From IMG/VR virus record IMGVR_UViG_3300013426_000006: a stretch of DNA of 52,908 bases; one strand, given 5' to 3'. Source of the DNA: a virus. Every line of letters starts with the position of its first letter. Within the stretch, counting starts at the first letter, position 1. Shown in pieces: positions 1 to 52,908 of the stretch. The notes under the pieces are model-generated. The model did no database searches, was not told where the DNA came from, and worked only from the letters and a program-made list of their open reading frames with translations. The translations under genes were made by a program, and so were the position numbers.

Positions 1-77
1 ACGGAGCTTCCTCGGCAACAGGTAACTGTGGAGCTTCCTCGGCAACAGGTGACTACGGAGCTTCCTCGGCAACAGGT
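1..77. repeat. 77-nt terminal direct repeat, identical to 52832-52908 (circular-assembly overlap)
   Basis: Base-by-base comparison of both window ends. The overlap lies inside the 27-nt tandem array. Confidence 0.95.
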
Positions 78-692
78 AACTACGGAGCTTCCTCGGCAAC
101 AGGTTACAAAGGAGCTTCCTCGGCAACAGGTTACAAAGGAGCTTCCTCGGCAACAGGTAACTGTGGAGCTTCCTCGGCAACAGGTGACTACGGAGCTTCC
201 TCGGCAACAGGTTACAAAGGAGCTTCCTCGGCAACAGGTAACTACGGAGCTTCCTCGGCAACAGGTAACTGTGGAGCTTCCTCGGCAACAGGTGACTACG
301 GAGCTTCCTCGGCAACAGGTTACAAAGGAGCTTCCTCGGCAACAGGTAACTACGGAGCTTCCTCGGCAACAGGTAACTGTGGAGCTTCCTCGGCAACAGG
401 TGACTACGGAGCTTCCTCGGCAACAGGTAACTACGGAGCTTCCTCGGCAACAGGTTACAAAGGAGCTTCCTCGGCAACAGGTTACAAAGGAGCTTCCTCG
501 GCAACAGGTAACTGTGGAGCTTCCTCGGCAACAGGTTACAAAGGAGCTTCCTCGGCAACAGGTGACTACGGAGCTTCCTCGGCAACAGGTTACAAAGGAG
601 CTTCCTCGGCAACAGGTGACTACGGAGCTTCCTCGGCAACAGGTAACTGTGGAGCTTCCTCGGCAACAGGTTACAAAGGAGCTTCCTCGGCA
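3..692 (+). repeat. 27-nt tandem repeat array, 25 full units plus a degenerate last unit
   Basis: Each unit is ggagcttcctcggcaacaggt (invariant 21 nt) plus a 6-nt word (gactac, aactac, aactgt or tacaaa). Units start at 3+27n. Confidence 0.97.
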
Positions 693-3479: not shown

Positions 3480-4316
3480 ATGGCAGAGAATACACAGGTT
3501 GCAATAACAAAACCTAAGAAAGAGTTGATGTTTTCAGAAAGCCTTCGAAATGAGCTTACAAGCGTGCAGGATGCATTACCAAAGGATTTTAACAAGGAAA
3601 GATTTGTGCAGAACGCACTTGCACTTCTGAACGATAACCCAAACATCGCCAAGTACGGACAGGCACAGATTATCGGTGGATTGATGAAGGGTGCATATTT
3701 GGGATTGGATTTCTACTCGAAAGAGTGCTATTTGGTTCCGTATAATAACCAGCTTAATTATCAGACAGATTATCGTGGAGCTAAAAAGCTGGCAAAGAAA
3801 TACGCAATTCGTCCGGTAAAAGATATTTACGCAAAGTTGGTACACGAAGGAGACCTTTTTGAAGAGAGTATCGAGGTCGGTAATCAGACATTCGTTTTTA
3901 AACCAAAGGCATTTAATGACGGAAAAATTATAGGTGCGTTTGCTGTTTGCTTATATACTGATGGTGGTATGCAGTATGAAACAATGAGCCTTGCAGATTT
4001 AGAGAATACACGTAAGGCAAGCAAGGCGAGCAATAGCCCAGCTTGGAAGAACTTCACAGGAGAAATGTACAAAAAGACAGTTCTTCACAGACTTTGCAAA
4101 CACATTGAATTAGATTTTGAGAACCCAACGCAACAGAATATGTTTTTATCCGGGATGGAGATTGAAACCGACTTACAGAAGTTAGCTGAAAACGATATTG
4201 AGCAGAATGCAAACAGTGTTGATTTTGACGAAAACGACATTATCGAGGGTACAGCCACAGAAGTAACTAAAGAACAGGCAGAAGATAATACGCTTCCACC
4301 ATTCATGGAGGAGTAA
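3480..4316 (+). CDS. recT: RecT-family single-strand annealing recombinase
   Basis: ECYLVPYNNQLNYQTDYRGAKKLA and surrounding sequence are typical RecT. Synteny with the ATPase, SSB and MBL nuclease genes. Confidence 0.85.
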   Translation: MAENTQVAITKPKKELMFSESLRNELTSVQDALPKDFNKERFVQNALALLNDNPNIAKYGQAQIIGGLMKGAYLGLDFYSKECYLVPYNNQLNYQTDYRGAKKLAKKYAIRPVKDIYAKLVHEGDLFEESIEVGNQTFVFKPKAFNDGKIIGAFAVCLYTDGGMQYETMSLADLENTRKASKASNSPAWKNFTGEMYKKTVLHRLCKHIELDFENPTQQNMFLSGMEIETDLQKLAENDIEQNANSVDFDENDIIEGTATEVTKEQAEDNTLPPFMEE

Positions 4317-7159: not shown

Positions 7160-7254
7160 GAGTTGATTGCATGATAACAATGATTTTTGAATTAAGAAAG
7201 GAATAACGAATCCTCGGTAAACCGAGGTTGTATCAAGATTAGAATGGTGAATTG

Positions 7255-8013
7255 ATGCGTGGTGTTATGACAAAAAGAAAACTAAAAGTATGTTGGGTAA
7301 GTGCTGGAATATCAAGTTTTATGGCTGGATATTTTGCAAAAGATGTAGACGAATGGATTTACATTGATATATCAGACCAGCATCCGGATAGTTTGAGATT
7401 TATTAAGGATTGTGAGAGAGCAATCGGGAAAGAGATACAGATATTGCAATCAAAGGAATATCGAAGTGTTGAAGAGTGTGTAAGGGCGTTCGGTGGTTTT
7501 AGGAATCCCGGAAATGGATTTGCACCTTGCACAAATTGGCTGAAAAAGAGAGTTCGTAAGGAGTGGGAAGAACAACACAGGGATTGTGAATTGACTTACG
7601 TTTGGGGATTTGACTTGAAAGAGAAGAATCGAGCCGAGAGGACAATCGAAGCTAACCCACAGGCAAAACATGAATTTCCACTTATTGACAAAGGACTTTC
7701 TAAAGAAGAGGTACATGGATTGTTTGAACGAACTTTTGATTTTGCCCGACCAAAAATGTATGAAATGGGTTATCCGAATAATAATTGCCTTGGCTGTGTG
7801 AAAGCGGGCATGGGTTATTGGAATAGGATTCGTAAGGATTTCCCGGAAGTATTTGATAACAGAGCAAAATTGGAGCGATTGGTCGGACATTCGATACTCA
7901 AGGACAGTAAAGGAAATCCGATATACCTTGACGAGTTAGACCCAAACAGAGGGAACATGAATACCGAAATATTCCCGGATTGCGGAATAATGTGTTATTT
8001 GAACATGAATTAG
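7255..8013 (+). CDS. PAPS-reductase/adenine-nucleotide alpha-hydrolase-like protein
   Basis: N-terminal WVSAGISS (PP-loop-like), APCTNWLKKR and LGCVKAG cysteine motifs. Start is ambiguous (7252 TTG, 7255 or 7267 ATG). Confidence 0.45.
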   Translation: MRGVMTKRKLKVCWVSAGISSFMAGYFAKDVDEWIYIDISDQHPDSLRFIKDCERAIGKEIQILQSKEYRSVEECVRAFGGFRNPGNGFAPCTNWLKKRVRKEWEEQHRDCELTYVWGFDLKEKNRAERTIEANPQAKHEFPLIDKGLSKEEVHGLFERTFDFARPKMYEMGYPNNNCLGCVKAGMGYWNRIRKDFPEVFDNRAKLERLVGHSILKDSKGNPIYLDELDPNRGNMNTEIFPDCGIMCYLNMN

Positions 8014-8054
8014 ATGTGAGTGGTGGGCGGTAGGGATAAAGGAGAGTGAAAAAT

Positions 8055-8213
8055 GTGGTAAATAATGATGAACATAATCAGTACAATCAAGGTGTGGACG
8101 ACATTGTGCAAGCAATCAAAGACCTTGTAAGTGAAAATCCAACAGATTGCTTTGCACAGATTGTATCTGATTTAGACCAGATAGCAAGCGACTTAAAGGA
8201 GTGTGAGACATAA
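8055..8213 (+). CDS. small hypothetical protein (52 aa; below the ORF-track cutoff)
   Basis: GGAGAG lies 8 nt upstream of GTG 8055. Acidic ORF ending TAA 8211-8213. Confidence 0.35.
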   Translation: MVNNDEHNQYNQGVDDIVQAIKDLVSENPTDCFAQIVSDLDQIASDLKECET

Positions 8214-8284
8214 GTGGCTACAAATTACAGAAGGTTAAAAGCTATCGAAAAAAGAACGTCTTTTAAGGAATCGAGGTGTAAATA

Positions 8285-8815
8285 ATGATATTACTTGAAG
8301 ATACAAGAAATCAAGTCGGAAAACACGACTTGAAAAACGAGTATTTCCAAAATAACGGAATAGAGGTTCGGAGAACGAAACTTTATTGCGGAGATTACAC
8401 ATTGCCGACAGACCAAAGTATATGTATAGACACGAAAAAGGACATACAGGAACTTATAGGGGACATATGCGGTAAATCTCACGAAAGGTTCAGGAATGAG
8501 CTTTTAAGGGCAAAAGAAAGCAACATCAAACTAATCATACTTACAGAAGATGATGGCGGATATTGCGACAGGAAGAAAACAATATACAACAAACCTGTAA
8601 AATGCGTAAATGATTTGTTCGGATGGAAAAACCCAAGATTGTTTATATGGCAAGGTGGAAAACAAAAATATCCAAAAGCGACAAAAGGGCAGACGTTAGC
8701 AAAGTGTCTTATTACACTTCAAGAGAAATATGGTTGCGAATTTAAGTTTACAACAAAGAAAAATAGCGGTTCTGAAATTATAAAGCTGCTTAATACTGAA
8801 AAATATGACGGTTGA
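8285..8815 (+). CDS. ERCC4/XPF-Mus81-like nuclease (possible junction resolvase)
   Basis: GDY...ICIDTKKDIQELIGDI resembles the GDY...ERK...D ERCC4 core. Confidence 0.5.
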   Translation: MILLEDTRNQVGKHDLKNEYFQNNGIEVRRTKLYCGDYTLPTDQSICIDTKKDIQELIGDICGKSHERFRNELLRAKESNIKLIILTEDDGGYCDRKKTIYNKPVKCVNDLFGWKNPRLFIWQGGKQKYPKATKGQTLAKCLITLQEKYGCEFKFTTKKNSGSEIIKLLNTEKYDG

Positions 8816-8881
8816 TGAAGAAATGCATAGGCTTGCAGAAACAGTATGAGAAGTTTATGCACTTGATAAATGAGGAAAATT

Positions 8882-9799
8882 ATGAGAATCGGACTGATTG
8901 ATGTTGATGGACACAACTTCCCCAATTTGCCTTTGATGAAACTTTCTGCTTATCATAAATCGCTTGGAGATAGTGTTGAATGGTACGAACCAATGTTTAG
9001 CGGTCATATGGATAGAGTTTATATGAGCAAAGTTTTTACATTTACTTCTGATTATGAGTATTGTATTGACGCAGACGAAATTATCAAAGGCGGGACAGGA
9101 TATTCTTATCCAGATGGCGGTAAACCATTAGCTGATGAGATAGAGCATATATACCCTGACTATTCTATCTATTATGAGAAATTACCGATGTCAAAAGACA
9201 CTGCTTATGGTTTTCTTACAAGAGGTTGCCCTAGAGGTTGCGATTTTTGCATAGTAGGGGAAAAGGAGGGGAGATGTTCTGTAAAAGTTGCCGATCTGTC
9301 GGAGTTTTGGAGAGGGCAGAAGAATATAGTTCTGCTAGATCCGAATATGTTTGCTTGCAAAGAGTGGAAAGATTTAAGCCAACAACTAATTGATAGCAAT
9401 GCTTGGGTTGATTTTTCGCAGGGCTGTGACATAAGAATTATGACCGATGAAAAAACGGAATATCTAAAGCAAATAAAAATAAAACAGATACATTTTGCTT
9501 GGGATAGGTACGAAGATAAAGATATTATCGTGCCTAAGTTTAAGAGGTTCGCCGAATTAACAGGGTGGAAATATTGGAAAATGACAGTTTATTGCTTGTG
9601 TAATTTTAACACAACTTTTGAACAGGATTTAGAAAGAATATATACACTTCGTGATCTTGGCTATTCGCCATATGTGATGCTTTATGAAAAAGAGAAGATT
9701 CCTCCCGGTCATAAACTAAGACAGTTACAGCGATATGCAAATAGCCGATGGATTTTTAGAAGCTGTGATAACTTTGAAGATTATAAGAAGAAACAATGA
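8882..9799 (+). CDS. radical SAM protein
   Basis: CPRGCDFC (CxxxCxxC) cluster. GAGG lies 6 nt upstream of ATG 8882. Confidence 0.7.
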   Translation: MRIGLIDVDGHNFPNLPLMKLSAYHKSLGDSVEWYEPMFSGHMDRVYMSKVFTFTSDYEYCIDADEIIKGGTGYSYPDGGKPLADEIEHIYPDYSIYYEKLPMSKDTAYGFLTRGCPRGCDFCIVGEKEGRCSVKVADLSEFWRGQKNIVLLDPNMFACKEWKDLSQQLIDSNAWVDFSQGCDIRIMTDEKTEYLKQIKIKQIHFAWDRYEDKDIIVPKFKRFAELTGWKYWKMTVYCLCNFNTTFEQDLERIYTLRDLGYSPYVMLYEKEKIPPGHKLRQLQRYANSRWIFRSCDNFEDYKKKQ

Positions 9800-9825
9800 G
9801 AAATTTATGGATTTATTGAAAGTGG

Positions 9826-10128
9826 GTGAAGATAATGTTAGTTCCGAAAGTTGATGCGAAAGAGTTTGAAAAATTTGGATTTAAGAAGTGCAAGGGTGAA
9901 TATGGCAAGAACGGTTGCTATTACCTTTGCGTTTCGAGAGGTATAAAGCTTCTTTTTGTAAGCGATGTGCATTTTGATGTTATGAATTGGAGAGACGATG
10001 ATCCGCGTATTCATAAAGATGCAAATTGCCGTTACAGAGATAACAGAACATACCTTGATATTATCTATGATCTTATCAAGGCGGATATGCTTATGAGTGA
10101 TTGCGTGAAAGTAGGTGATGCAGAATGA
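9826..10128 (+). CDS. hypothetical protein
   Basis: ORF in operon; start uncertain (GTG 9826 or ATG 9835). Confidence 0.5.
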   Translation: MKIMLVPKVDAKEFEKFGFKKCKGEYGKNGCYYLCVSRGIKLLFVSDVHFDVMNWRDDDPRIHKDANCRYRDNRTYLDIIYDLIKADMLMSDCVKVGDAE

Positions 10129-10340
10129 AAAGAAGTGAATGTATAGAAGTATTAGACCACTTAAAAGAAAAATTGCAAAAAAAAGAAATAATTGCTATAC
10201 AGGATAATGAAGACGATTATATATGTCCTGTATGCGGTCAGATTTTTAAATCTGAAGATATTATTAGATATTGCTACAAGTGGTGTTATAACTGTGGTCA
10301 GAGAGTGGAATTTATTCTTCCAAGAAAGAAACAGATTTAA
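10125..10340 (+). CDS. hypothetical zinc-ribbon protein
   Basis: CPVCGQ...CYNCGQ. Confidence 0.55.
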   Translation: MKRSECIEVLDHLKEKLQKKEIIAIQDNEDDYICPVCGQIFKSEDIIRYCYKWCYNCGQRVEFILPRKKQI

Positions 10341-10403
10341 CTAAAAATTAAAGAAAGGAACAGGACGCGCGCATAAAACCTAGGTTTCCTTTTGGTAGAT
10401 TTT

Positions 10404-10766
10404 ATGGATTTTGAAAATTATTCTTGTGATAATCAGATGTCTATATTTGATTTTACAAGAGAACCGATTAGAATAACAAAACCTATTCGGTTGATTGAAC
10501 TTTTTGCCGGATATGGTAGTCAAGCAATGGCATTAAAAAGAATAGGTGCTAAATTTGAGCATTACAGGGTTGTGGAGTTTGATAAATATGCTATTGCAAG
10601 CTATAACGCAGTACACGGAACAGATTTTCCTACAATGGATATAACAAAGGTTCACGCAGAAGATTTGAATATTTGCGACACGGAAACCTTTACTTACTTA
10701 CTTACTTACTTACTCTTTTCCGTGTACGGACCTGTCTGTTGCCGGAAAACAAGCCGGGATGTCTAA
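10404..10766 (+). CDS. C5-cytosine DNA methyltransferase, N-terminal fragment (motif I); frame lost at (TTAC)6
   Basis: ELFAGYGSQAMAL (FxGxG). The out-of-frame tail FSVYGPVCCRKTSRDV follows the repeat. Confidence 0.8.
   Translation: MDFENYSCDNQMSIFDFTREPIRITKPIRLIELFAGYGSQAMALKRIGAKFEHYRVVEFDKYAIASYNAVHGTDFPTMDITKVHAEDLNICDTETFTYLLTYLLFSVYGPVCCRKTSRDV
10690..10714 (+). repeat. (TTAC)6 tetranucleotide tract inside the methyltransferase coding sequence
   Basis: Six perfect units at 10690-10713 immediately 5' of the FPC catalytic motif. Confidence 0.97.
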
Positions 10767-11466
10767 GGGCAGCGGTACACGATCAGGTCTGTTGTGGGAA
10801 GTTGAAAGAATACTAACCGAAATCAAAGATAGTGGTGGAGAATTACCACAAATATTATTCATGGAAAATGTACCACAGGTACATGGCAAGAAAAATATTG
10901 ATGATTTCAAGAAGTGGTTGGAATTTCTTGAAAGTTTAGGTTATACGAATTATTGGGATGATTTAAACGCTAAGAATTACGGAGTTGCACAGAACAGAAA
11001 CAGATGCTTTATGTTTTCGTTCTTAGGAAACTATTCATATAGTTTTCCGCACCCGATGCCACTTGAAAAGAAGTTAAAGGACTATCTGGAAGACAGTGTT
11101 GATGAAAAGTATTATATCAACAACGAAAAGGCTGAAAAACTGATAAAACAGCTTATTGACAATGGCACATTACCGAATACAATCCCTAAGAGCAGAGCAG
11201 AGCAGAGCAGAGCAGAGCAGAGCAGACTTGCGTTGACGGAACAATCAACGAACCACAGCAAAGAGAGATTGCAAACTGCATCAAGGCAAGATATGACGCT
11301 GGAATCTCAAACTTGCGGTCGGGCGGAAACCTTGTTGTTAAAAGGAATGGTTGATAAAGATATTGAACCAACGGCGTCAGTGATTGATGTTTCGACAACG
11401 ATTATGTCAAGAGACTATAAGGGATTGAATAATTACGGAACGAATGGAGTAATTGAATGGAAGTAG
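10759..11466 (+). CDS. C5-cytosine DNA methyltransferase, central fragment (PC-proximal, ENV, QxRxR and TRD-like segments)
   Basis: This frame extends upstream to TYSFPCTDLSVAGKQAG. Also GTRSGLLWEVERIL, FMENVPQV, AQNRNRCFM, TIMSRDYKG. Confidence 0.8.
   Translation: MSKGSGTRSGLLWEVERILTEIKDSGGELPQILFMENVPQVHGKKNIDDFKKWLEFLESLGYTNYWDDLNAKNYGVAQNRNRCFMFSFLGNYSYSFPHPMPLEKKLKDYLEDSVDEKYYINNEKAEKLIKQLIDNGTLPNTIPKSRAEQSRAEQSRLALTEQSTNHSKERLQTASRQDMTLESQTCGRAETLLLKGMVDKDIEPTASVIDVSTTIMSRDYKGLNNYGTNGVIEWK
11191..11226 (+). repeat. (AGCAG)7 pentanucleotide tract inside the methyltransferase locus
   Basis: Seven perfect units at 11191-11225. Confidence 0.97.
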
Positions 11467-11516
11467 TAGGAAGTATATACACAGGAGTTTCAGAGGGTTT
11501 TCAGCGCGGAATTATC

Positions 11517-11525
11517 GGGGGGGGG
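11517..11525 (+). repeat. G9 homopolymer inside the methyltransferase locus
   Basis: Nine consecutive G between the VVGSIYTGVSEGFQRG segment and the ISRCVKAETHD segment, which lie in different frames. Confidence 0.95.
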
Positions 11526-11571
11526 TATCTCCCGATGCGTGAAGGCTGAAACACACGATTTAGGAGTAGTT

Positions 11572-12183
11572 ATGGCAGAAATACAAGAAAAACGATTAGG
11601 TAATATATATTCTTTCGATGGCGGTAATTTTGCCGGGAATGTTTACGACAAAGAATGCATATCTCCCACATTAAAAACTATGCAGGGCGGAAATTCTCAA
11701 CCTATGGTGGTTGCCATGCGTGGAAGAAATCCAAACAACCCATCGGATAGAACCAAGGGAAGTCCAACAGAACAACGGTTAGAAGTGAATACGCAAGGCA
11801 CAAGTAATTGTTTGACAAGTGTGCAGAAAGATAATATGGTGTTGGAGAAACCTTTGTTATTAGGCGGAGTTGGTAAAGAAAACAAGTTTGGAAAACAGTA
11901 TAGGCAAGGGAATAGGGTGTATAGTTCTGATGCTTGCGCTATGGCATTAAACGCTCAACCTGTTGGGAATTCTGGTGGAAACTCATATTTATATAATGTC
12001 GGATATCGTATCAGAAAACTAACGCCTAGAGAATGTGGACGGCTGATGGGCGTATCTGATGAAGATATTGACAAAATGGCAGCGGTCAACAGTAACACAC
12101 AGTTGTACAAGCAATTTGGCAATAGCATAGTAGTTGATGTTATGTGCGCCATGTTTAAGAATTTGAACATTGAGCAGGAGTGA
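11572..12183 (+). CDS. C5-cytosine DNA methyltransferase, C-terminal fragment (TRD-like modules, motifs IX-X)
   Basis: ECISPTLKTMQGG, RKLTPRECGRLMG, YKQFGNSIVV. AGGAG lies 5 nt upstream of ATG 11572. The open frame reaches back to GTG 11539. Confidence 0.8.
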   Translation: MAEIQEKRLGNIYSFDGGNFAGNVYDKECISPTLKTMQGGNSQPMVVAMRGRNPNNPSDRTKGSPTEQRLEVNTQGTSNCLTSVQKDNMVLEKPLLLGGVGKENKFGKQYRQGNRVYSSDACAMALNAQPVGNSGGNSYLYNVGYRIRKLTPRECGRLMGVSDEDIDKMAAVNSNTQLYKQFGNSIVVDVMCAMFKNLNIEQE

Positions 12184-12187
12184 TTAA

Positions 12188-12394
12188 ATGGTTAAACCAC
12201 TAGCGCCGTGCATGAATTGTTCTGATAGGCATATCGGTTGCCATGGTATATGTGACAAGTATAGGGCATATACAGAGGCGCATGAGGAACTTAAAGCGAG
12301 TATTCGACAACAGAAGTTTGTACATAATTCTATAAAAGATATGCATAAGGAACAATGGGCACGGTATTCGAGAAATCGTCACAAAGAAAATTAG
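12188..12394 (+). CDS. hypothetical Cys-rich protein
   Basis: CMNCSDRHIGCHGIC. Confidence 0.5.
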   Translation: MVKPLAPCMNCSDRHIGCHGICDKYRAYTEAHEELKASIRQQKFVHNSIKDMHKEQWARYSRNRHKEN

Positions 12395-12402
12395 GAGTGT
12401 GA

Positions 12403-12807
12403 TTGAAAATGAGCAAAAGCAAAGAAGAGCAGGCAAGACGTGAGGGAATGTCTTATGCGCTTAGATACGCAAGAGAACATGGCTTAGATGCCTTAGAAGA
12501 GGATTTGAAGAAGCGTGGAGCGTATAACATACCTGTGCGGATTGATGATAAGGCATTGCAGGAGTTTACAGATAACGCCAAGAATATGATGCTTGACACG
12601 ATTCTGATTCTGGCATCGGTAACACTGCATGATGAATTTGGGTTCGGTAGAGAACGGCTAAATCGTTTTAAGAAGCGGTTTAATTTTAAGGCGGAGTGTA
12701 TCGGTGAAAACTATACCGATTGGAACGATCAGATATCAATATTAAAGGAAGAGTGCGGATTGGAGTATTCCATCCGCATGAACGAAAAGGATGCGAGGTT
12801 GAAATAA
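12403..12807 (+). CDS. hypothetical protein
   Basis: AGGAG at 12393. Start is TTG 12403 or ATG 12409. Confidence 0.55.
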   Translation: MKMSKSKEEQARREGMSYALRYAREHGLDALEEDLKKRGAYNIPVRIDDKALQEFTDNAKNMMLDTILILASVTLHDEFGFGRERLNRFKKRFNFKAECIGENYTDWNDQISILKEECGLEYSIRMNEKDARLK

Positions 12808-13040
12808 TGAATCACAGGAAGTGGAAAAAGGAATATAAAAAGCGGTACAGAATACGACCGATTATTTTCCTTGACAAGAAGCGGAAAGAAAAGGCTATGG
12901 CTATGATACGTGATTATATGTCACAGACTACTATCCGTATAACCGAGAATCAGTATTATTTGGAACTTGGGTGTTATTACAACGAGACTTCGATGGATAA
13001 CAGGAGAACAATGCTTAAAGTATGGGAAGGCGGTGTATAG
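12807..13040 (+). CDS. hypothetical protein (77 aa)
   Basis: ATG overlaps the upstream TAA (TAATG). The longer listed ORF 12720.. overlaps the previous gene. Confidence 0.5.
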   Translation: MNHRKWKKEYKKRYRIRPIIFLDKKRKEKAMAMIRDYMSQTTIRITENQYYLELGCYYNETSMDNRRTMLKVWEGGV

Positions 13041-13041
13041 A

Positions 13042-13239
13042 ATGGCAATGGCGACTTACGAAGAAGTGTGCAAGATGGGGTACTATAGTGCGATTGACGA
13101 TGTCATGAACATGCTTAACGATATAAAATTTGGCGGCGGTACAAAAGAAACACTTGCTTGCGCAAATGCGACACTTAACTACATCAAGGAGAAAGTAGAG
13201 AAACTAAGAAGTGGAGGCGTGGTAGATAATGACGATTGA
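13042..13239 (+). CDS. hypothetical protein (65 aa)
   Basis: ATG 13042 lies directly after the upstream stop. Confidence 0.5.
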   Translation: MAMATYEEVCKMGYYSAIDDVMNMLNDIKFGGGTKETLACANATLNYIKEKVEKLRSGGVVDNDD

Positions 13240-13525
13240 TGAAGCAATAGAAAATCTAAAACACGACTATTTGATATGCGAATATATAGATTATATAGCA
13301 CTACAGATTGCAGGATGGCTGGAAGAGTTGAAAGCATACAGAGAACAGCATCAGGCATTATGTGATGCATACGATGTAAACACAGTTGAAGATATTTACG
13401 ATAAAGCGATTGACGATTTTATCAAAGCGGTAGACAAACATTGTGGATATTATTCAGGAGAATGCAAAAATCTTACGCGTGATGATATTCTCGAAATTGC
13501 AAAGGAGTTGAAGGATAATGGTTAA
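13229..13525 (+). CDS. hypothetical protein
   Basis: Overlapping operon ORF. Confidence 0.5.
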   Translation: MTIDEAIENLKHDYLICEYIDYIALQIAGWLEELKAYREQHQALCDAYDVNTVEDIYDKAIDDFIKAVDKHCGYYSGECKNLTRDDILEIAKELKDNG

Positions 13526-13814
13526 GAAAATTAGGGTTTATATCAGCGGTCCGATCACAGGAACTGCGGATTACATGGAACGATTTGAAGAAGCTGAGAA
13601 ACGCTTAAATGGAGAATTCAGCGTTATCAATCCGGCAAAATTAAATTCAAATATGCCGGACGACACGACGCACGAAGAGTATATGAAGATGTCTATATGC
13701 ATGTTATCTATGTGCGATGCAATTTTCATGCTGAATGGATGGGAAGATAGCGTAGGGGCGTGCGAAGAAAACATTTATGCGTTGAAAAACGGCATGCGGA
13801 TTTTTAGGGAGTGA
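13518..13814 (+). CDS. DUF4406 / nucleoside 2-deoxyribosyltransferase-like protein
   Basis: VYISGPITG...CDAIFMLNGWEDSVGACEE pattern. Confidence 0.55.
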   Translation: MVKKIRVYISGPITGTADYMERFEEAEKRLNGEFSVINPAKLNSNMPDDTTHEEYMKMSICMLSMCDAIFMLNGWEDSVGACEENIYALKNGMRIFRE

Positions 13815-13821
13815 TTTATTT

Positions 13822-14625
13822 ATGGGAAACTTTGTAAAAATAGATCGGAAAATTCTTGAATGGGAATGGTGGGATAATTTCAACACATTTAGATTGTTTT
13901 TTTACATGCTTGTGTCTGCATATTGGAAAGACGGATATTACAAAGGAGAACTGATTGAGCGTGGTTCTTTTCCATCTTCCATATCAAAATTAGCATCAGA
14001 AACAGGCTTGACAGACAACGAAATTCGCAACGCGCTAAAGCACCTTAAAAGCACAGGCGAAATCACAAGCAAATCACATAGTAAATATAGCGTATTTACT
14101 ATAAAAAACTACAATTTGTATCAATCAGATAACAAACAAAAATGCGATGAAATCACAAGCACCGATGCAATCAAAATGCAATCAGATAACAAGCAGATAA
14201 CAAACCTTCCTATTATAAAAGAAGTAAAGAATATAAGAAGTAAAGAATATAAGAATAATATAGGGGCGAAAACGACCTATTACGAAGATCCTGATCTTAA
14301 TTCTGCGTTTGTTGAATTTTTGGATATGCGCAAGAAGATTAAAAAGCCGATTGCTACGAAACAGGCACTTACGCGGATGAAAAACAAGATTGAAAGATTG
14401 TCCGGCGGAGATACAAAGCTGGCAATTAAGATTTTGAATCAGTCGGTAGATCATTGCTGGTCGGATGTATATGAGCTTAAAAGTGATTATAGCAGCAAGC
14501 ATATACAGGATGCCGAAAAGGCTAAATCTGTAACCGATATGCAGTTGGAATCGCTTGCAGAGCGGCAGAGACAGAATGTAAAAATTATGAGTGACAAGGA
14601 AATAAATAAAATGTTTGGAGAGTGA
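13822..14625 (+). CDS. phage replisome organizer / DnaD-like replication initiation protein
   Basis: N-terminal FVKIDRKILEWEWW...RLFFYMLV winged-helix type. Followed by a DnaC-like loader downstream. Confidence 0.7.
   Translation: MGNFVKIDRKILEWEWWDNFNTFRLFFYMLVSAYWKDGYYKGELIERGSFPSSISKLASETGLTDNEIRNALKHLKSTGEITSKSHSKYSVFTIKNYNLYQSDNKQKCDEITSTDAIKMQSDNKQITNLPIIKEVKNIRSKEYKNNIGAKTTYYEDPDLNSAFVEFLDMRKKIKKPIATKQALTRMKNKIERLSGGDTKLAIKILNQSVDHCWSDVYELKSDYSSKHIQDAEKAKSVTDMQLESLAERQRQNVKIMSDKEINKMFGE
14059..14254 (+). repeat. cluster of direct repeats inside the replisome organizer gene (candidate origin)
   Basis: GAAATCACAAGC x2 (14059, 14149). CAGATAACAA x3 (14126, 14183, 14194). 16-nt tandem AGTAAAGAATATAAGA x2 (14223-14254). 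Confidence 0.6.
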
Positions 14626-14629
14626 TGAT

Positions 14630-15016
14630 ATGGAGAGATTGACGAAGAATAATAACGGAGACTACTATTATCCAGAATGCTTTGAAAAGTGCAGTGGAAA
14701 TGGAACATCTGAAAAGTGTAATGAATGCAGTTTTAATTATTTGATATGTAAAAAGCTTGGAGAGTATGAGGATTTAGAGGAGCAGGGCAGACTTATCAAG
14801 ATACCACTTGAAGCGTATTGTATTGTGGATTTTGAAGTACGAAAAGGGTTTGTGTTAGAAGCAGCATATCACATAAGCAGAAAACCTTTACTTGTAATTC
14901 GATATGATGATAGTTCGCTTAAAAGTCATAGTGGTTATTTAGGCATTTCAGTATTCCTCGCAAAATCCGAAGCAGAAGCAAAACTGAAAGAATTGAGAGG
15001 TGGAAAAAATGAGTGA
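14630..15016 (+). CDS. hypothetical protein
   Basis: GGAGAG lies 7 nt upstream of ATG 14630. Confidence 0.55.
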   Translation: MERLTKNNNGDYYYPECFEKCSGNGTSEKCNECSFNYLICKKLGEYEDLEEQGRLIKIPLEAYCIVDFEVRKGFVLEAAYHISRKPLLVIRYDDSSLKSHSGYLGISVFLAKSEAEAKLKELRGGKNE

Positions 15017-15377
15017 TAAACAGGGAAATCTTACAGATGAAGAAATAGAAGATTTACAAGGCATAGTAACTGATACATTGGCAAGCATATGTACTATGGC
15101 TGACAAGCACAATATCGATAGAGACAGTATGCTTAAATGCTTCACTGAAATGCTCACAGCTTTTACAGAAGTGGCAAGCATACAGAATTATGAAACAAAT
15201 GAGCATACTAATGCCGACAGGATAAGGAATATGTCGGATGAAGAGTTAGCAGATAGTTTAACAGCAACAGCAAAGTGTGACGAGTGTTTTGTTATAAAGG
15301 AACATGAACCTTATTGCCTTTCAGCTTCGGCTTGTAGGCAAAAACATCTTGAATGGCTTCAATCAGAAGCAGAATAG
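15009..15377 (+). CDS. hypothetical protein
   Basis: GAGAGGTGG upstream of ATG 15009. Confidence 0.55.
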   Translation: MSDKQGNLTDEEIEDLQGIVTDTLASICTMADKHNIDRDSMLKCFTEMLTAFTEVASIQNYETNEHTNADRIRNMSDEELADSLTATAKCDECFVIKEHEPYCLSASACRQKHLEWLQSEAE

Positions 15378-15385
15378 GAGGGAAT

Positions 15386-15793
15386 ATGGAAGATAGATAT
15401 TTATTCAAGGCAAAAAGAGTTGATAACGGAGAATGGGTTATAGGATTTCTCCATTGCAAAGATGATAAATGGTATATAAGTAACAAAGCAGGCTCACCGT
15501 TTGCATTTGAAGTAAAACCGGACACTATATGCCAATGTACAGGCTTGAAAGACAGGAATGGCAATCTGATTTGGGAGAATGATATTATGAAATTTGACAT
15601 ATATTATTATGAAAAATTGGAGAACAGTACAATATCGCAAATTAAATGGTGTAATGATTTATGTGCATTAAGTCTTGTAGTGAATGATAAAGGAACTAGA
15701 GGCACATTAGGTCATTTAATGGATTCAAACAAAGAAGTTGATGTTATCGGCAACATATTTGACAATCCAGAGTTATTAGAAAGTGAGGAATAA
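15386..15793 (+). CDS. YopX-family protein
   Basis: LFKAKRVDNGEWVIGF...CQCTGLKDRNGNLIWENDI...VIGNIFDNPELLE. Confidence 0.65.
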   Translation: MEDRYLFKAKRVDNGEWVIGFLHCKDDKWYISNKAGSPFAFEVKPDTICQCTGLKDRNGNLIWENDIMKFDIYYYEKLENSTISQIKWCNDLCALSLVVNDKGTRGTLGHLMDSNKEVDVIGNIFDNPELLESEE

Positions 15794-15794
15794 T

Positions 15795-16088
15795 ATGACA
15801 GAGAGTGAAGCGATTAAGGAACTTCAAGAAAACATTGACTTGCCATTTGGAAGTAATATATCCAAAGAAGCGGCAAAGCTGGCAATACAGGCACTTGAAA
15901 AACAGATACCGAAGAATCCAAGAAAAACAGATTCGTACAGAGGGGTATTAAAAAGAGTATATGCTTATGTATGCCCTACTTGTGGGAATGTATGTTTAGA
16001 AAAATACATGAATGAACGGCAGAATACAATGTTTTGTTGGAATTGCGGTCAAAAAATAGATTGGAGTGATGAATATGAGATTGATTGA
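15795..16088 (+). CDS. hypothetical zinc-ribbon protein
   Basis: CPTCGN...CWNCGQ. Confidence 0.5.
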   Translation: MTESEAIKELQENIDLPFGSNISKEAAKLAIQALEKQIPKNPRKTDSYRGVLKRVYAYVCPTCGNVCLEKYMNERQNTMFCWNCGQKIDWSDEYEID

Positions 16089-16329
16089 TGCAGATGCATT
16101 GTGTTATGAAGATGTAGAATGTATAGATGGTAATACATATATGGTTGTACATGCACCAGAAATAGATAATGCTCCAACAGCTTATGATATTGATGGTGTT
16201 GTAGAACAGCTAAAGAGATGTTATGGAATAGTAAGAAGCACTAGCGTTGATTATGCTGAAGGTTTAAAAGACGCATATGAAAGAGCTATTGGTATTGTAA
16301 AGGCAGGTGGAGTATATGAGATTAGTTGA
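16075..16329 (+). CDS. hypothetical protein
   Basis: GGAG lies 8 nt upstream of ATG 16075. Confidence 0.5.
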   Translation: MRLIDADALCYEDVECIDGNTYMVVHAPEIDNAPTAYDIDGVVEQLKRCYGIVRSTSVDYAEGLKDAYERAIGIVKAGGVYEIS

Positions 16330-20124: not shown

Positions 20125-20566
20125 TTATATGCCACAGTATCAATCATATCAACAGGCATATAACCCTATGCAGAACATTCAGAGGTTCCAGCAACCACAG
20201 CAAGAACAGATGCAACAGGGTATCTTTGGTAAAGTTGTGCAATCTCAAGATTCCATAGTAGCAAATGATGTACCTATGAATGGAAGTGTTGCATTTTTCC
20301 CTAAGAGCGACTTATCGGAGATTTATGCAAAACAATGGAGTGCAGACGGAACAATCTCTACAATGGTTTTTAAGCCACTTCAAAATGATAACCCTAACAA
20401 GTCATCACAAGACACAGAAAAATTGAAAATAGGGCTATCAGACGAAGCTACAGAGATATTTAACAAGCACTTCGATACCTTGTTTTCAAAAATAGAAGAA
20501 CTTGAAAAGAAAATCGACGAAAAATCTTTGACTAAGACTGCAAGAACAAAAGTTAGTCAAGAATAG
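20087..20566 (+). CDS. hypothetical protein with Q/N/Y/P-rich N-terminus
   Basis: GAGGAGG upstream. First 45 aa are dominated by Q, N, Y and P. Confidence 0.6.
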   Translation: MQINPYQIPQVNNYMPQYQSYQQAYNPMQNIQRFQQPQQEQMQQGIFGKVVQSQDSIVANDVPMNGSVAFFPKSDLSEIYAKQWSADGTISTMVFKPLQNDNPNKSSQDTEKLKIGLSDEATEIFNKHFDTLFSKIEELEKKIDEKSLTKTARTKVSQE

Positions 20567-20609
20567 TCTAAGAATAGTCTAAGAATAGTCTAAGAATAGT
20601 CTAAGAATA
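20554..20609 (+). repeat. 11-nt tandem repeat AAGAATAGTCT, about 4.6 copies
   Basis: Perfect units at 20559, 20570, 20581 and 20592, with partial units at both ends. The tract spans the upstream stop codon and the intergenic region. Confidence 0.95.
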
Positions 20610-52472: not shown

Positions 52473-52908
52473 AGGTTACAAGGGATTTAACAAGGATATG
52501 ACGTGCCGCGGATTTCAGTATGAAGAAGGCGAGGAATACGAAACAGAAGAAGCAGAAATATGTGAGAAAGGCTTCCATGCTTGCGAATATCCTCTTGACT
52601 GTTTTAGTTATTACAATCCTACAGAAAGCGTATATCACGAAGTAGAGCAAAGTGGAGAGATAAGCAAGAATGAAGATGAGGACACGAAGCTTGCGTCTAC
52701 TAAGATTAAGATTGGAGCGAAATTGAGCATTGCCGGGATTGTACAGGCGGCTATTGAATACACATCAAGCAGAGTGAAAAAGGAATCGGACAATGATTCA
52801 AGAAAAGGAGCTTCCTCGGCAACAGGTGACTACGGAGCTTCCTCGGCAACAGGTAACTGTGGAGCTTCCTCGGCAACAGGTGACTACGGAGCTTCCTCGG
52901 CAACAGGT
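52456..52908 (+). CDS. N-terminal part of the junction-wrapping repeat protein (DUF7666-like N-domain)
   Basis: GGGAG lies 7 nt upstream of ATG 52456. MSEVIKGYKGFNKDMTCRGFQYEEGEEYE..CEKGFHACEYPLDCFSYY. The frame is open to the window end and continues at position 78. Confidence 0.8.
   Translation, partial: MSEVIKGYKGFNKDMTCRGFQYEEGEEYETEEAEICEKGFHACEYPLDCFSYYNPTESVYHEVEQSGEISKNEDEDTKLASTKIKIGAKLSIAGIVQAAIEYTSSRVKKESDNDSRKGASSATGDYGASSATGNCGASSATGDYGASSATG
52807..52908 (+). repeat. first 3.8 units of the 27-nt tandem array
   Basis: GASSATGDY, GASSATGNC, GASSATGDY, GASSATG... Confidence 0.95.

Follow-up and report, generated by a model that had tools for sequence, protein, structure and literature searches.

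Here we describe a phage DNA methylase gene in which a short tandem repeat appears to choose between target recognition domains (TRDs). It lies in the IMG/VR virus record IMGVR_UViG_3300013426_000006, a stretch of 52,908 nucleotides (hereafter the window, i.e., that stretch at its full length), and all methylase features given below are on its plus strand. Judged by its translation, the segment 10404-12183 is one C5-cytosine DNA methyltransferase gene of the multi-TRD (multispecific) kind, interrupted by three hypermutable repeat tracts. One of them, (AGCAG)7 at 11191-11225, separates the catalytic N-domain from two recognition modules that are encoded in different frames. We consider it reasonably probable (roughly 65%) that slipped-strand changes in the length of this tract rotate the reading frame and thus select the TRD of a split, multi-TRD C5 methylase, whereby the phage population would carry mixed methylation specificities.

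A preliminary description of this DNA had reported seven perfect AGCAG units, and all of its coordinates proved correct. Tandem Repeats Finder delimits the repeat at 11189-11226 (period 5, 7.6 copies, 100% matches), and no comparable tract was obtained in dinucleotide-preserving shuffles of the window. The tract is translated as SRAEQ repeats, is stop-free in every frame, and follows directly upon the catalytic N-domain (10714-11190, frame 1), which ends in a helix (...KLIKQLIDNGTLPNTIPK). Slipped-strand gain or loss of 5-nt units would rotate the frame and produce three states. Where the number of units (n) is a multiple of 3 (3, 6, 9, 12), the N-domain would be fused to TRD1 (ANCIKARYD...; 11226-11354, frame 0), which reads TCVDGTINEPQQREIANCIKARYDAGISNLRSGGNLVVKRNG and stops at TGA 11352-11354. 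Where n is a multiple of 3 plus 1, as with the 7 units of the window, frame 1 reads SRAEQSRAEQSR and crosses the TRD1 DNA as a stop-free linker of about 40 residues (LALTEQSTNHSKERLQTASRQDMTLESQTCGRAETLLLKG, 11227-11345), from which it would enter TRD2 (TTIMSRDYKG...IEWK; MVDKDIEPTASVIDVSTTIMSRDYKGLNNYGTNGVIEWK, 11346-11466), ending at TAG 11464-11466 with a second TAG at 11467-11469. In the remaining, null state (n = 5, 8, 11, i.e., a multiple of 3 plus 2), frame 2 meets TGA 11234-11236 three codons past the tract, and this polypeptide would carry no TRD. The preliminary description had given the outcomes for n = 7, for 6 or 9, and for 5 or 8 in just these terms, and each of them holds; the gene itself starts at ATG 10404 and not at 10759, where the frame-1 reading had been taken up.

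Same-phage assemblies were retrieved by identical-protein look-ups, and an exact 26-mer scan with window-specific flank gave no match in viral or metagenome collections. Tract length, on whose variation the preliminary description had let its proposal depend, does vary in otherwise unchanged DNA. Contig L082 (ERZ808272) aligns to window positions 7588-16183 with 0 mismatches over 8.6 kb and two gaps, these being (TTAC)5 for 6 and (AGCAG)11 for 7; L091 (ERZ27300215) has n = 6 with 0 mismatches, L083 has G10 in place of G9, again with 0 mismatches, and L086 is identical to the window. Same-phage contigs thus hold 7, 11, or 6 AGCAG units, 6 or 5 TTAC units, and runs of 9 or 10 G, and these are repeats within a coding region whose length shifts the frame; both features are those of a contingency locus. 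Contigs of ~98% identity have n = 2, 3, 5, 5, and 6, plus one interrupted six-unit tract, together with G9 or G10. The null state is found among these assemblies as upstream (alpha) open reading frames (ORFs) that end at the TGA of 11234-11236, 282 aa long in L082 (n = 11) and 272 aa long in L087 and L090 (n = 5). Five contigs start or end at the AGCAG tract, which may hint at high-frequency, reversible switching within a clonal population. Relatives of the enzyme are encoded by 397 IMG/VR stretches, of which 80 were kept after ranking by tblastn (with a query that has TRD1 in frame) and 119 were added from an unranked DNA-pattern scan. Nearly all of the ~200 related viral loci have (AGCAG)2-13, (GACA)2-18 or a degenerate (8-mer) version at the homologous site, and the same relatives also have (TTAC)4-6 and one or two poly-G tracts. 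The near-identical loci L010, L050, and L052 contain 7, 9, and 6 units, respectively. From these comparisons, the AGCAG tract is hypermutable.

The peptide reached in frame 0 had been thought TRD-like from its letters, and it is a genuine TRD: it aligns, at 51% identity (E 9e-11), to a variable-region module (residues 321-357) of a methylase that is intact and free of repeats, the 527-aa enzyme of Dulem virus 39. Among unique relatives, TRD1 read in frame f has codon-position entropies of 0.37/0.35/0.64, TRD2 read in frame f+1 has 0.38/0.32/0.85, and the start of TRD3, in its own frame, has 0.39/0.33/0.78; the synonymous/non-synonymous ratio collapses once any of the three is read in another frame. 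The same ratio is 3-13 for the N-domain and 6.3 for the C-domain, which is strong purifying selection. Wherever the TRD2 type of the window was found, it lies in the +1 frame relative to TRD1, and so do three other TRD2 types (REYKE, GFIDKGTGQHQSN, and IANCILSHISKDG types, seen among L021, L031, and L076/L026), making four types in all. By these codon patterns, the TRD1 and TRD2 frames both code. A peptide search with the linker plus TRD2 returned mostly 77-aa ORFs and short fragments, with no full-length proteins; 77 aa is the size expected if gene callers start at a TTG within the linker, so the result shows only that the open frame is widespread.

The TRD1 DNA is also kept readable in a second frame. 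Its +1 frame is stop-free in all 44 unique DNA variants, where 2.5% per sequence would be expected (synonymous-codon resampling with the family's own usage), and its +2 frame is open in none of the 44. Among TRD1 codons at which a synonymous choice could create a +1 stop, only 2 of 305 do so against 121 expected, whereas elsewhere the same statistic runs at ~0.75-1.3 times expectation (N-domain, 556 vs 646 expected; TRD2, 92 vs 124; the C-terminal segments also). Kinship of the sequences inflates these counts, although the contrast between TRD1 and the control segments is drawn within the same sequences and is independent of it. Of 120 unique loci in the larger sample, from the unranked scan, 115 keep the +1 path free of stops for 60 codons or more. 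One relative, L016, encodes a single 597-aa ORF with motifs I-X that passes through the out-of-frame linker and TRD2; its repeat (3781-3821) is degenerate at the 3' end ((GACA)8 GGCAGGCAG) and its poly-G, in the YDGEGCSPTL region, is interrupted, so that point mutations appear to have locked this allele in the TRD2 state. L078 is the converse, with a single ORF that runs via TRD1 after a deletion. The conservation of TRD1 and TRD2 each in its own frame, the +1 offset of TRD2, the stop-free +1 reading of TRD1, and the complete enzyme of L016 together lend good support to what the preliminary description had ventured, namely that the tract may act as a specificity switch beyond simple ON/OFF control.

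As for the enzyme on which such a switch would act, the frame-repaired protein matches PF00145 in Pfam (E 1.4e-58). Against the PDB, the N-domain aligns to M.MpeI (E 1.8e-33) and also to residues 11-227 of M.HhaI, and the last TRD with motifs IX-X aligns to M.HhaI 236-317 (E 5.6e-10). The C5 motifs follow in order, distributed over frames 0 and 1: ELFAGYGS (I), SFPCTD (IV), MENVPQV (VI), QNRNR (VIII), RKLTPRECGRLMG (IX), and GNSIVV (X). The variable region between motifs VIII and IX spans ~330 residues and holds six TRD-like modules, which places the enzyme with the multispecific phage methylases; each has a T/C-[LIV]-x-[AST] core (ANCIKAR, TTIMSRD, SRCVKAE, SPTLKTM, NCLTSVQ, and AMALNAQ), and between relatives modules are exchanged as whole units. 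As assembled, the gene consists of six frame segments with five breaks. The first (10404-10689, frame 0) holds motif I and corresponds to a 120-aa ENA gene call at the matching position in the identical contig L086, the second is the N-domain with motifs IV, VI (ENV), and VIII, and the third and fourth are TRD1 and TRD2. The fifth is the N-terminal part of TRD3 (MEVVGSIYTGVSEGFQRGII, 11457-11516, frame 0), with codon periodicity in its own frame, and the sixth (11526-12183, frame 1) contains the rest of TRD3, TRD4-6, and motifs IX and X. Three of these features lay outside the preliminary description: the gene is already out of frame at (TTAC)6, a G9 tract follows downstream, and motifs IX-X stand in a separate ORF ending at 12183.

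This downstream half has starts of its own. A GGAG at 11446-11449 precedes ATG 11457 by a 7-nt spacer (11446-11459 together), and this start of the beta ORF overlaps the TRD2 stop, i.e., the TAG that would end the TRD2 path overlaps both the ribosome-binding site and the ATG from which the next ORF would be read. A second site (11562-12183), with AGGAG at 11562-11566 and ATG 11572 after 5 nt, opens a 203-aa ORF (beta') with TRD4 (CISPTLKTMQGG), TRD5 (SNCLTSVQKDN), the last, HhaI-like TRD, and motifs IX and X. Among relatives, the beta start is an ATG in 66 of 67, with GGAGT 7 nt upstream in 63 of 67, all 68 beta' sites examined have AGGAG followed after 4-9 nt by ATG, and the 203-aa product has been called as a gene in 13 contigs. 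The frame of beta relative to TRD1 varies between architectures, as expected of an independent start. In the window architecture, all three frames are closed by stops between TRD1 and TRD3, so that no single ORF can join motifs I-VIII to motifs IX-X. These two sets thus stand on separate ORFs divided inside the variable region, in the manner of M.AquI, with alpha ending at 11354 or 11466 and beta starting at 11457 or 11572. Translation of motifs IX-X and the further TRDs would be initiated at ATG 11457, or at ATG 11572 if the G tract is out of frame. Because motifs IX-X are encoded downstream and initiated separately, an active enzyme would have to be an alpha/beta one, split in the variable region. 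Given that both halves are under purifying selection and that no ORF joins them, a functional two-polypeptide enzyme is the simplest reading, and we infer that alpha and beta assemble.

The frames could also be joined at the level of RNA or ribosome. A programmed +1 frameshift at AAA-AGG (about 11340), or slippage of transcription on G9, would yield a fused TRD1-TRD2-TRD3 product whatever the length of the DNA tract. The window sequence GTT AAA AGG A would permit a Lys-tRNA to slip by +1 beside a rare AGG codon, a mechanism known from Ty1-type sites, and polymerases tend to slip on long runs of G. A 2026 preprint (10.64898/2026.04.01.715767) reports that frameshifts at the SSR (simple sequence repeat) of a mod gene can be suppressed. 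However, AAA-AGG is not conserved, being AAA-GGG in L069, and the types represented by L002 and L064 have unrelated junctions with the same +1 offset; at the TRD2/TRD3 junction, there is no slippery heptamer and instead a conserved Shine-Dalgarno sequence with ATG. Pentanucleotide tracts are, to our knowledge, not known as slippage sites of RNA polymerase. With no slippery site conserved across junction types at either TRD1/TRD2 or TRD2/TRD3, we rejected programmed frameshifting, and we regard RNA-level joining in general as quite improbable. Recoding of TAG was considered too, as frame 1 is open from 10673 to 12183 but for the TAG TAG of 11464-11469. It was rejected: standard-code ORFs cover 85% of the genome and recoding adds little, TAG ends 11 of the 39 long plus-strand frames as a normal stop, and the genome uses the standard code. 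The TAG at the end of TRD2 arises incidentally from V/I/L-G codons that are conserved in the beta ORF.

Two further tracts interrupt the gene. Directly upstream of motif IV, (TTAC)6 (10690-10713) leaves the window out of frame, whereas five units join frame 0 to frame 1 and read DTETFTYLLTYSFPC. The in-frame (TTAC)5 occurs in L082 and in most relatives, and the spacing of the five-unit form recurs in the homologue from Dulem virus 39 (DTDMYCYIMTYSFPC). We postulate that (TTAC)n acts as a master switch, on at five units and off at six. Within TRD3, 20 codons after the conserved Shine-Dalgarno sequence and ATG, the G9 tract (11517-11525) separates the N-terminal part from the C-terminal part (ISRCVKAETHDLGVV, 11526-11571, frame 1); lengths of 8, 5, and 2 are in frame, and G9 is not. 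Many in-frame versions (8, 5, and 2) in relatives are interrupted, some tracts of length 8 among them, and a further poly-G lies in the following TRD (YDVGGCSPTL) of many relatives. The G tract would switch TRD3 in or out. The window as assembled therefore has TTAC off, AGCAG in the TRD2 state, and the G tract out of frame.

Several observations weigh against selection of the TRD by the AGCAG tract. Among 127 unique loci of the unranked pattern scan, the TRD1, TRD2, and null states occur at 55:42:30, which is near uniform (chi-square about 7.4); from these frequencies there is a weak indication that the TRD2 state fares better than the null state. A ratio of 57:19:4 in the 80 ranked loci would suggest strong selection against the null state, but it is an artefact of ranking by a tblastn query with TRD1 in frame. 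In L087 and L092, i.e., in the closest sub-lineage, an Ala codon of TRD1 has become a Val codon, and the resulting +1 TAG closes the TRD2 path; stops on this path also occur in L039 and L033. A complete single ORF is found in only 2 of ~200 SSR-bearing loci. Neither the TRD1 nor the TRD2 product includes motifs IX-X, so activity needs the downstream polypeptide, and we know of no enzyme shown to work with a TRD on the C-terminus of alpha and motif IX on another chain. The G tract is G9 or G10, thus out of frame, in every own-lineage contig that covers it, and because (TTAC)6 is off and the G tract out of frame, the assembled state probably makes no active enzyme.

Some of these points would suit ordinary on/off phase variation, in which the TRD1 frame alone is functional, the linker with TRD2 and the immediate stop are two off states, and TRD2 is a leftover. 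On/off control is the norm for phase-variable methyltransferases with SSRs according to reviews, and both the near-uniform states and the +1-path stops of some lineages agree with it. A leftover, however, should hardly be under the clear purifying selection that TRD2 shows in its own frame, nor does on/off control account for the ~60-fold depletion of stop-making codons in the +1 frame of TRD1 and in that frame only, for the placement of all four TRD2 types in the +1 frame, or for the full-length L016 enzyme encoded through the TRD2 path. We consider it rather unlikely, if the most serious of the competing explanations. A decaying or dispensable pseudogene that gathers frameshifts at slippery tracts, its multiple frames having no function, might likewise be suspected from the five breaks of the assembled gene, the scarcity of intact ORFs (the same 2 of ~200 SSR-bearing relatives), and the commonness of the null state. 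Yet all segments are under purifying selection in more than 100 diverged phages, the frame changes fall at the same SSRs or at conserved Shine-Dalgarno and ATG junctions and not at random positions, frame offsets are invariant, and the +1 frame is selectively kept open; we give this explanation very little credence.

The selection of a TRD by (AGCAG)n may be part of a larger arrangement, which we put forward tentatively and at somewhat less than even odds. The locus could be a combinatorial generator of methylation specificity that works from coding architecture alone, with as many as four hypermutable tracts that act independently: a master switch in motif IV, a three-state selector of TRD1, TRD2, or none on dual-coding DNA, and poly-G switches in later TRDs. 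Owing to restarts (Shine-Dalgarno sequence plus ATG) at the module boundaries, a frameshift would then drop or swap one recognition module and split the enzyme, and would not kill it.

Among known systems, the closest in domain plan are the multispecific C5 methylases of Bacillus phages (M.SPRI, M.Phi3TI, M.Rho11sI, and M.H2I, from the Trautner laboratory), which are likewise phage-encoded and have one catalytic core (motifs I-X) with a tandem TRD array between motifs VIII and IX; their TRD modules measure ~40-50 residues, and each is expected to recognise a different target, as TRD1 and TRD2 may here. Those enzymes are single polypeptides in one frame without repeat tracts, whereas here frame 0 holds TRD1 and the TRD3 start and frame 1 holds TRD2, so that the TRDs do not share one frame or polypeptide, tracts lie between modules, and the enzyme is split. 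As in Type III mod phasevarions, Type I hsdM/hsdS genes with SSRs, and the Type IIG gene cj0031, an SSR inside the gene would alter the frame of a methyltransferase by slipped-strand mispairing, and several independent tracts are present. A change of specificity through truncation of HsdS is known for NgoAV, and the Haemophilus lic genes have three-frame SSR switches with alternative C-termini. The SSR-variable methyltransferases covered by reviews and surveys are bacterial N6-adenine enzymes that switch on and off (PMC11868660). In contrast to bacterial mod and hsd phase variation, the present gene is phage-encoded and of the 5-methylcytosine type, and its alternative frame would be a second recognition module on dual-coding DNA. 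C-terminal SSR switching in Helicobacter canadensis (PMC2823697) is similar in that a repeat near the 3' part gives alternative C-termini and more than two states, although the tails of the H. canadensis and lic cases are not known as separately conserved domains, nor as kept open by codon choice across a domain in another frame. With M.AquI and M.EcoHK31I the gene shares overlapping ORFs and the placement of motifs I-VIII plus part of the variable region on one polypeptide and of the rest plus motifs IX-X on the other. The small subunit of M.EcoHK31I is also encoded in another frame, and, besides these two natural two-polypeptide C5 methylases, fragments of M.BspRI, M.BsuRI, M.HhaI, and M.SssI split in the variable region complement each other (PMC3404938). 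Unlike in our putative alpha/beta enzyme, the splits in all of these are fixed and come without repeat tracts or a choice of TRD. A full-text literature search turned up no account of C5 methylases that are phage-encoded and either SSR-variable or frame-switched. A 2025 review of phase variation does not mention phage genomes; the word "bacteriophage" occurs in it five times, always for bacterial phase variation in response to phage (PMC11868660).

The phage itself is represented in full. A 27-nt tandem array of ~29 copies in total, encoding the nonapeptide ELPRQQVT[TKV], occupies window positions 1-692 and 52807-52908; since it leaves the end of the window and resumes at its start, the contig wraps, and the window is a complete circular or terminally redundant gut-phage genome. 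The otherwise identical L086 is 400 bp shorter, which may reflect a variable number of the 27-nt copies or their collapse during assembly. With a single exception, the long ORFs share one strand. Relatives in genome bins belong mostly to Lachnospiraceae or Roseburia, and the host is probably a member of the Lachnospiraceae. Upstream of the methylase (8285-8815, 8870-9799, and 7252-8013) lie an ERCC4-type nuclease (PF02732) and two ORFs of 250-310 aa without Pfam match, one of which bears a CxxxCxxC-like motif (GCPRGCDFC) suggestive of a radical S-adenosylmethionine enzyme. In related phages, a (GACA)n tract upstream of the methylase breaks a PP-loop (SAGKDS/SGGKDS) PAPS-reductase-like gene (L029, 1342-1369; L030, 1330-1369; L039, 1118-1149); the tract counts 7 units in L029 against 10 in L030, which is near-identical, and the C-terminal half of the gene lies in another frame. 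This points to a further DNA-modification gene under SSR control in the phage family. Elsewhere in the window, five copies of an 11-nt unit (TAGTCTAAGAA) occupy 20554-20609, in the short gap between an ORF ending at 20566 and the next start (ATG at about 20624); with a period of one helical turn, they may be a regulatory or binding-site array.

Gene callers return 3-6 small fragments for each methylase locus of this family, and annotation pipelines miss such loci. A repeat that chooses between two conserved recognition modules in overlapping frames would be a compact way to diversify the specificity of an enzyme. Its purpose may be a population of mixed methylation specificities, i.e., bet-hedging against two kinds of host, those whose restriction attacks unmethylated DNA and those whose restriction attacks methylated DNA. 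If the locus is a combinatorial generator as outlined above, one phage gene could give rise to a dozen or more methylation phenotypes and hedge between hosts with methylation-sensitive and methylation-dependent restriction, and it would be without precedent both as a phage-encoded methylase system with phase variation and as an SSR switch that picks among alternative recognition domains through overlapping frames. In bacteria, phase-variable methyltransferases are known to act in epigenetic regulation and in defence; their presence in a large family of gut phages (~400 IMG/VR contigs) would mean that contingency loci also serve viruses in the arms race with their hosts.

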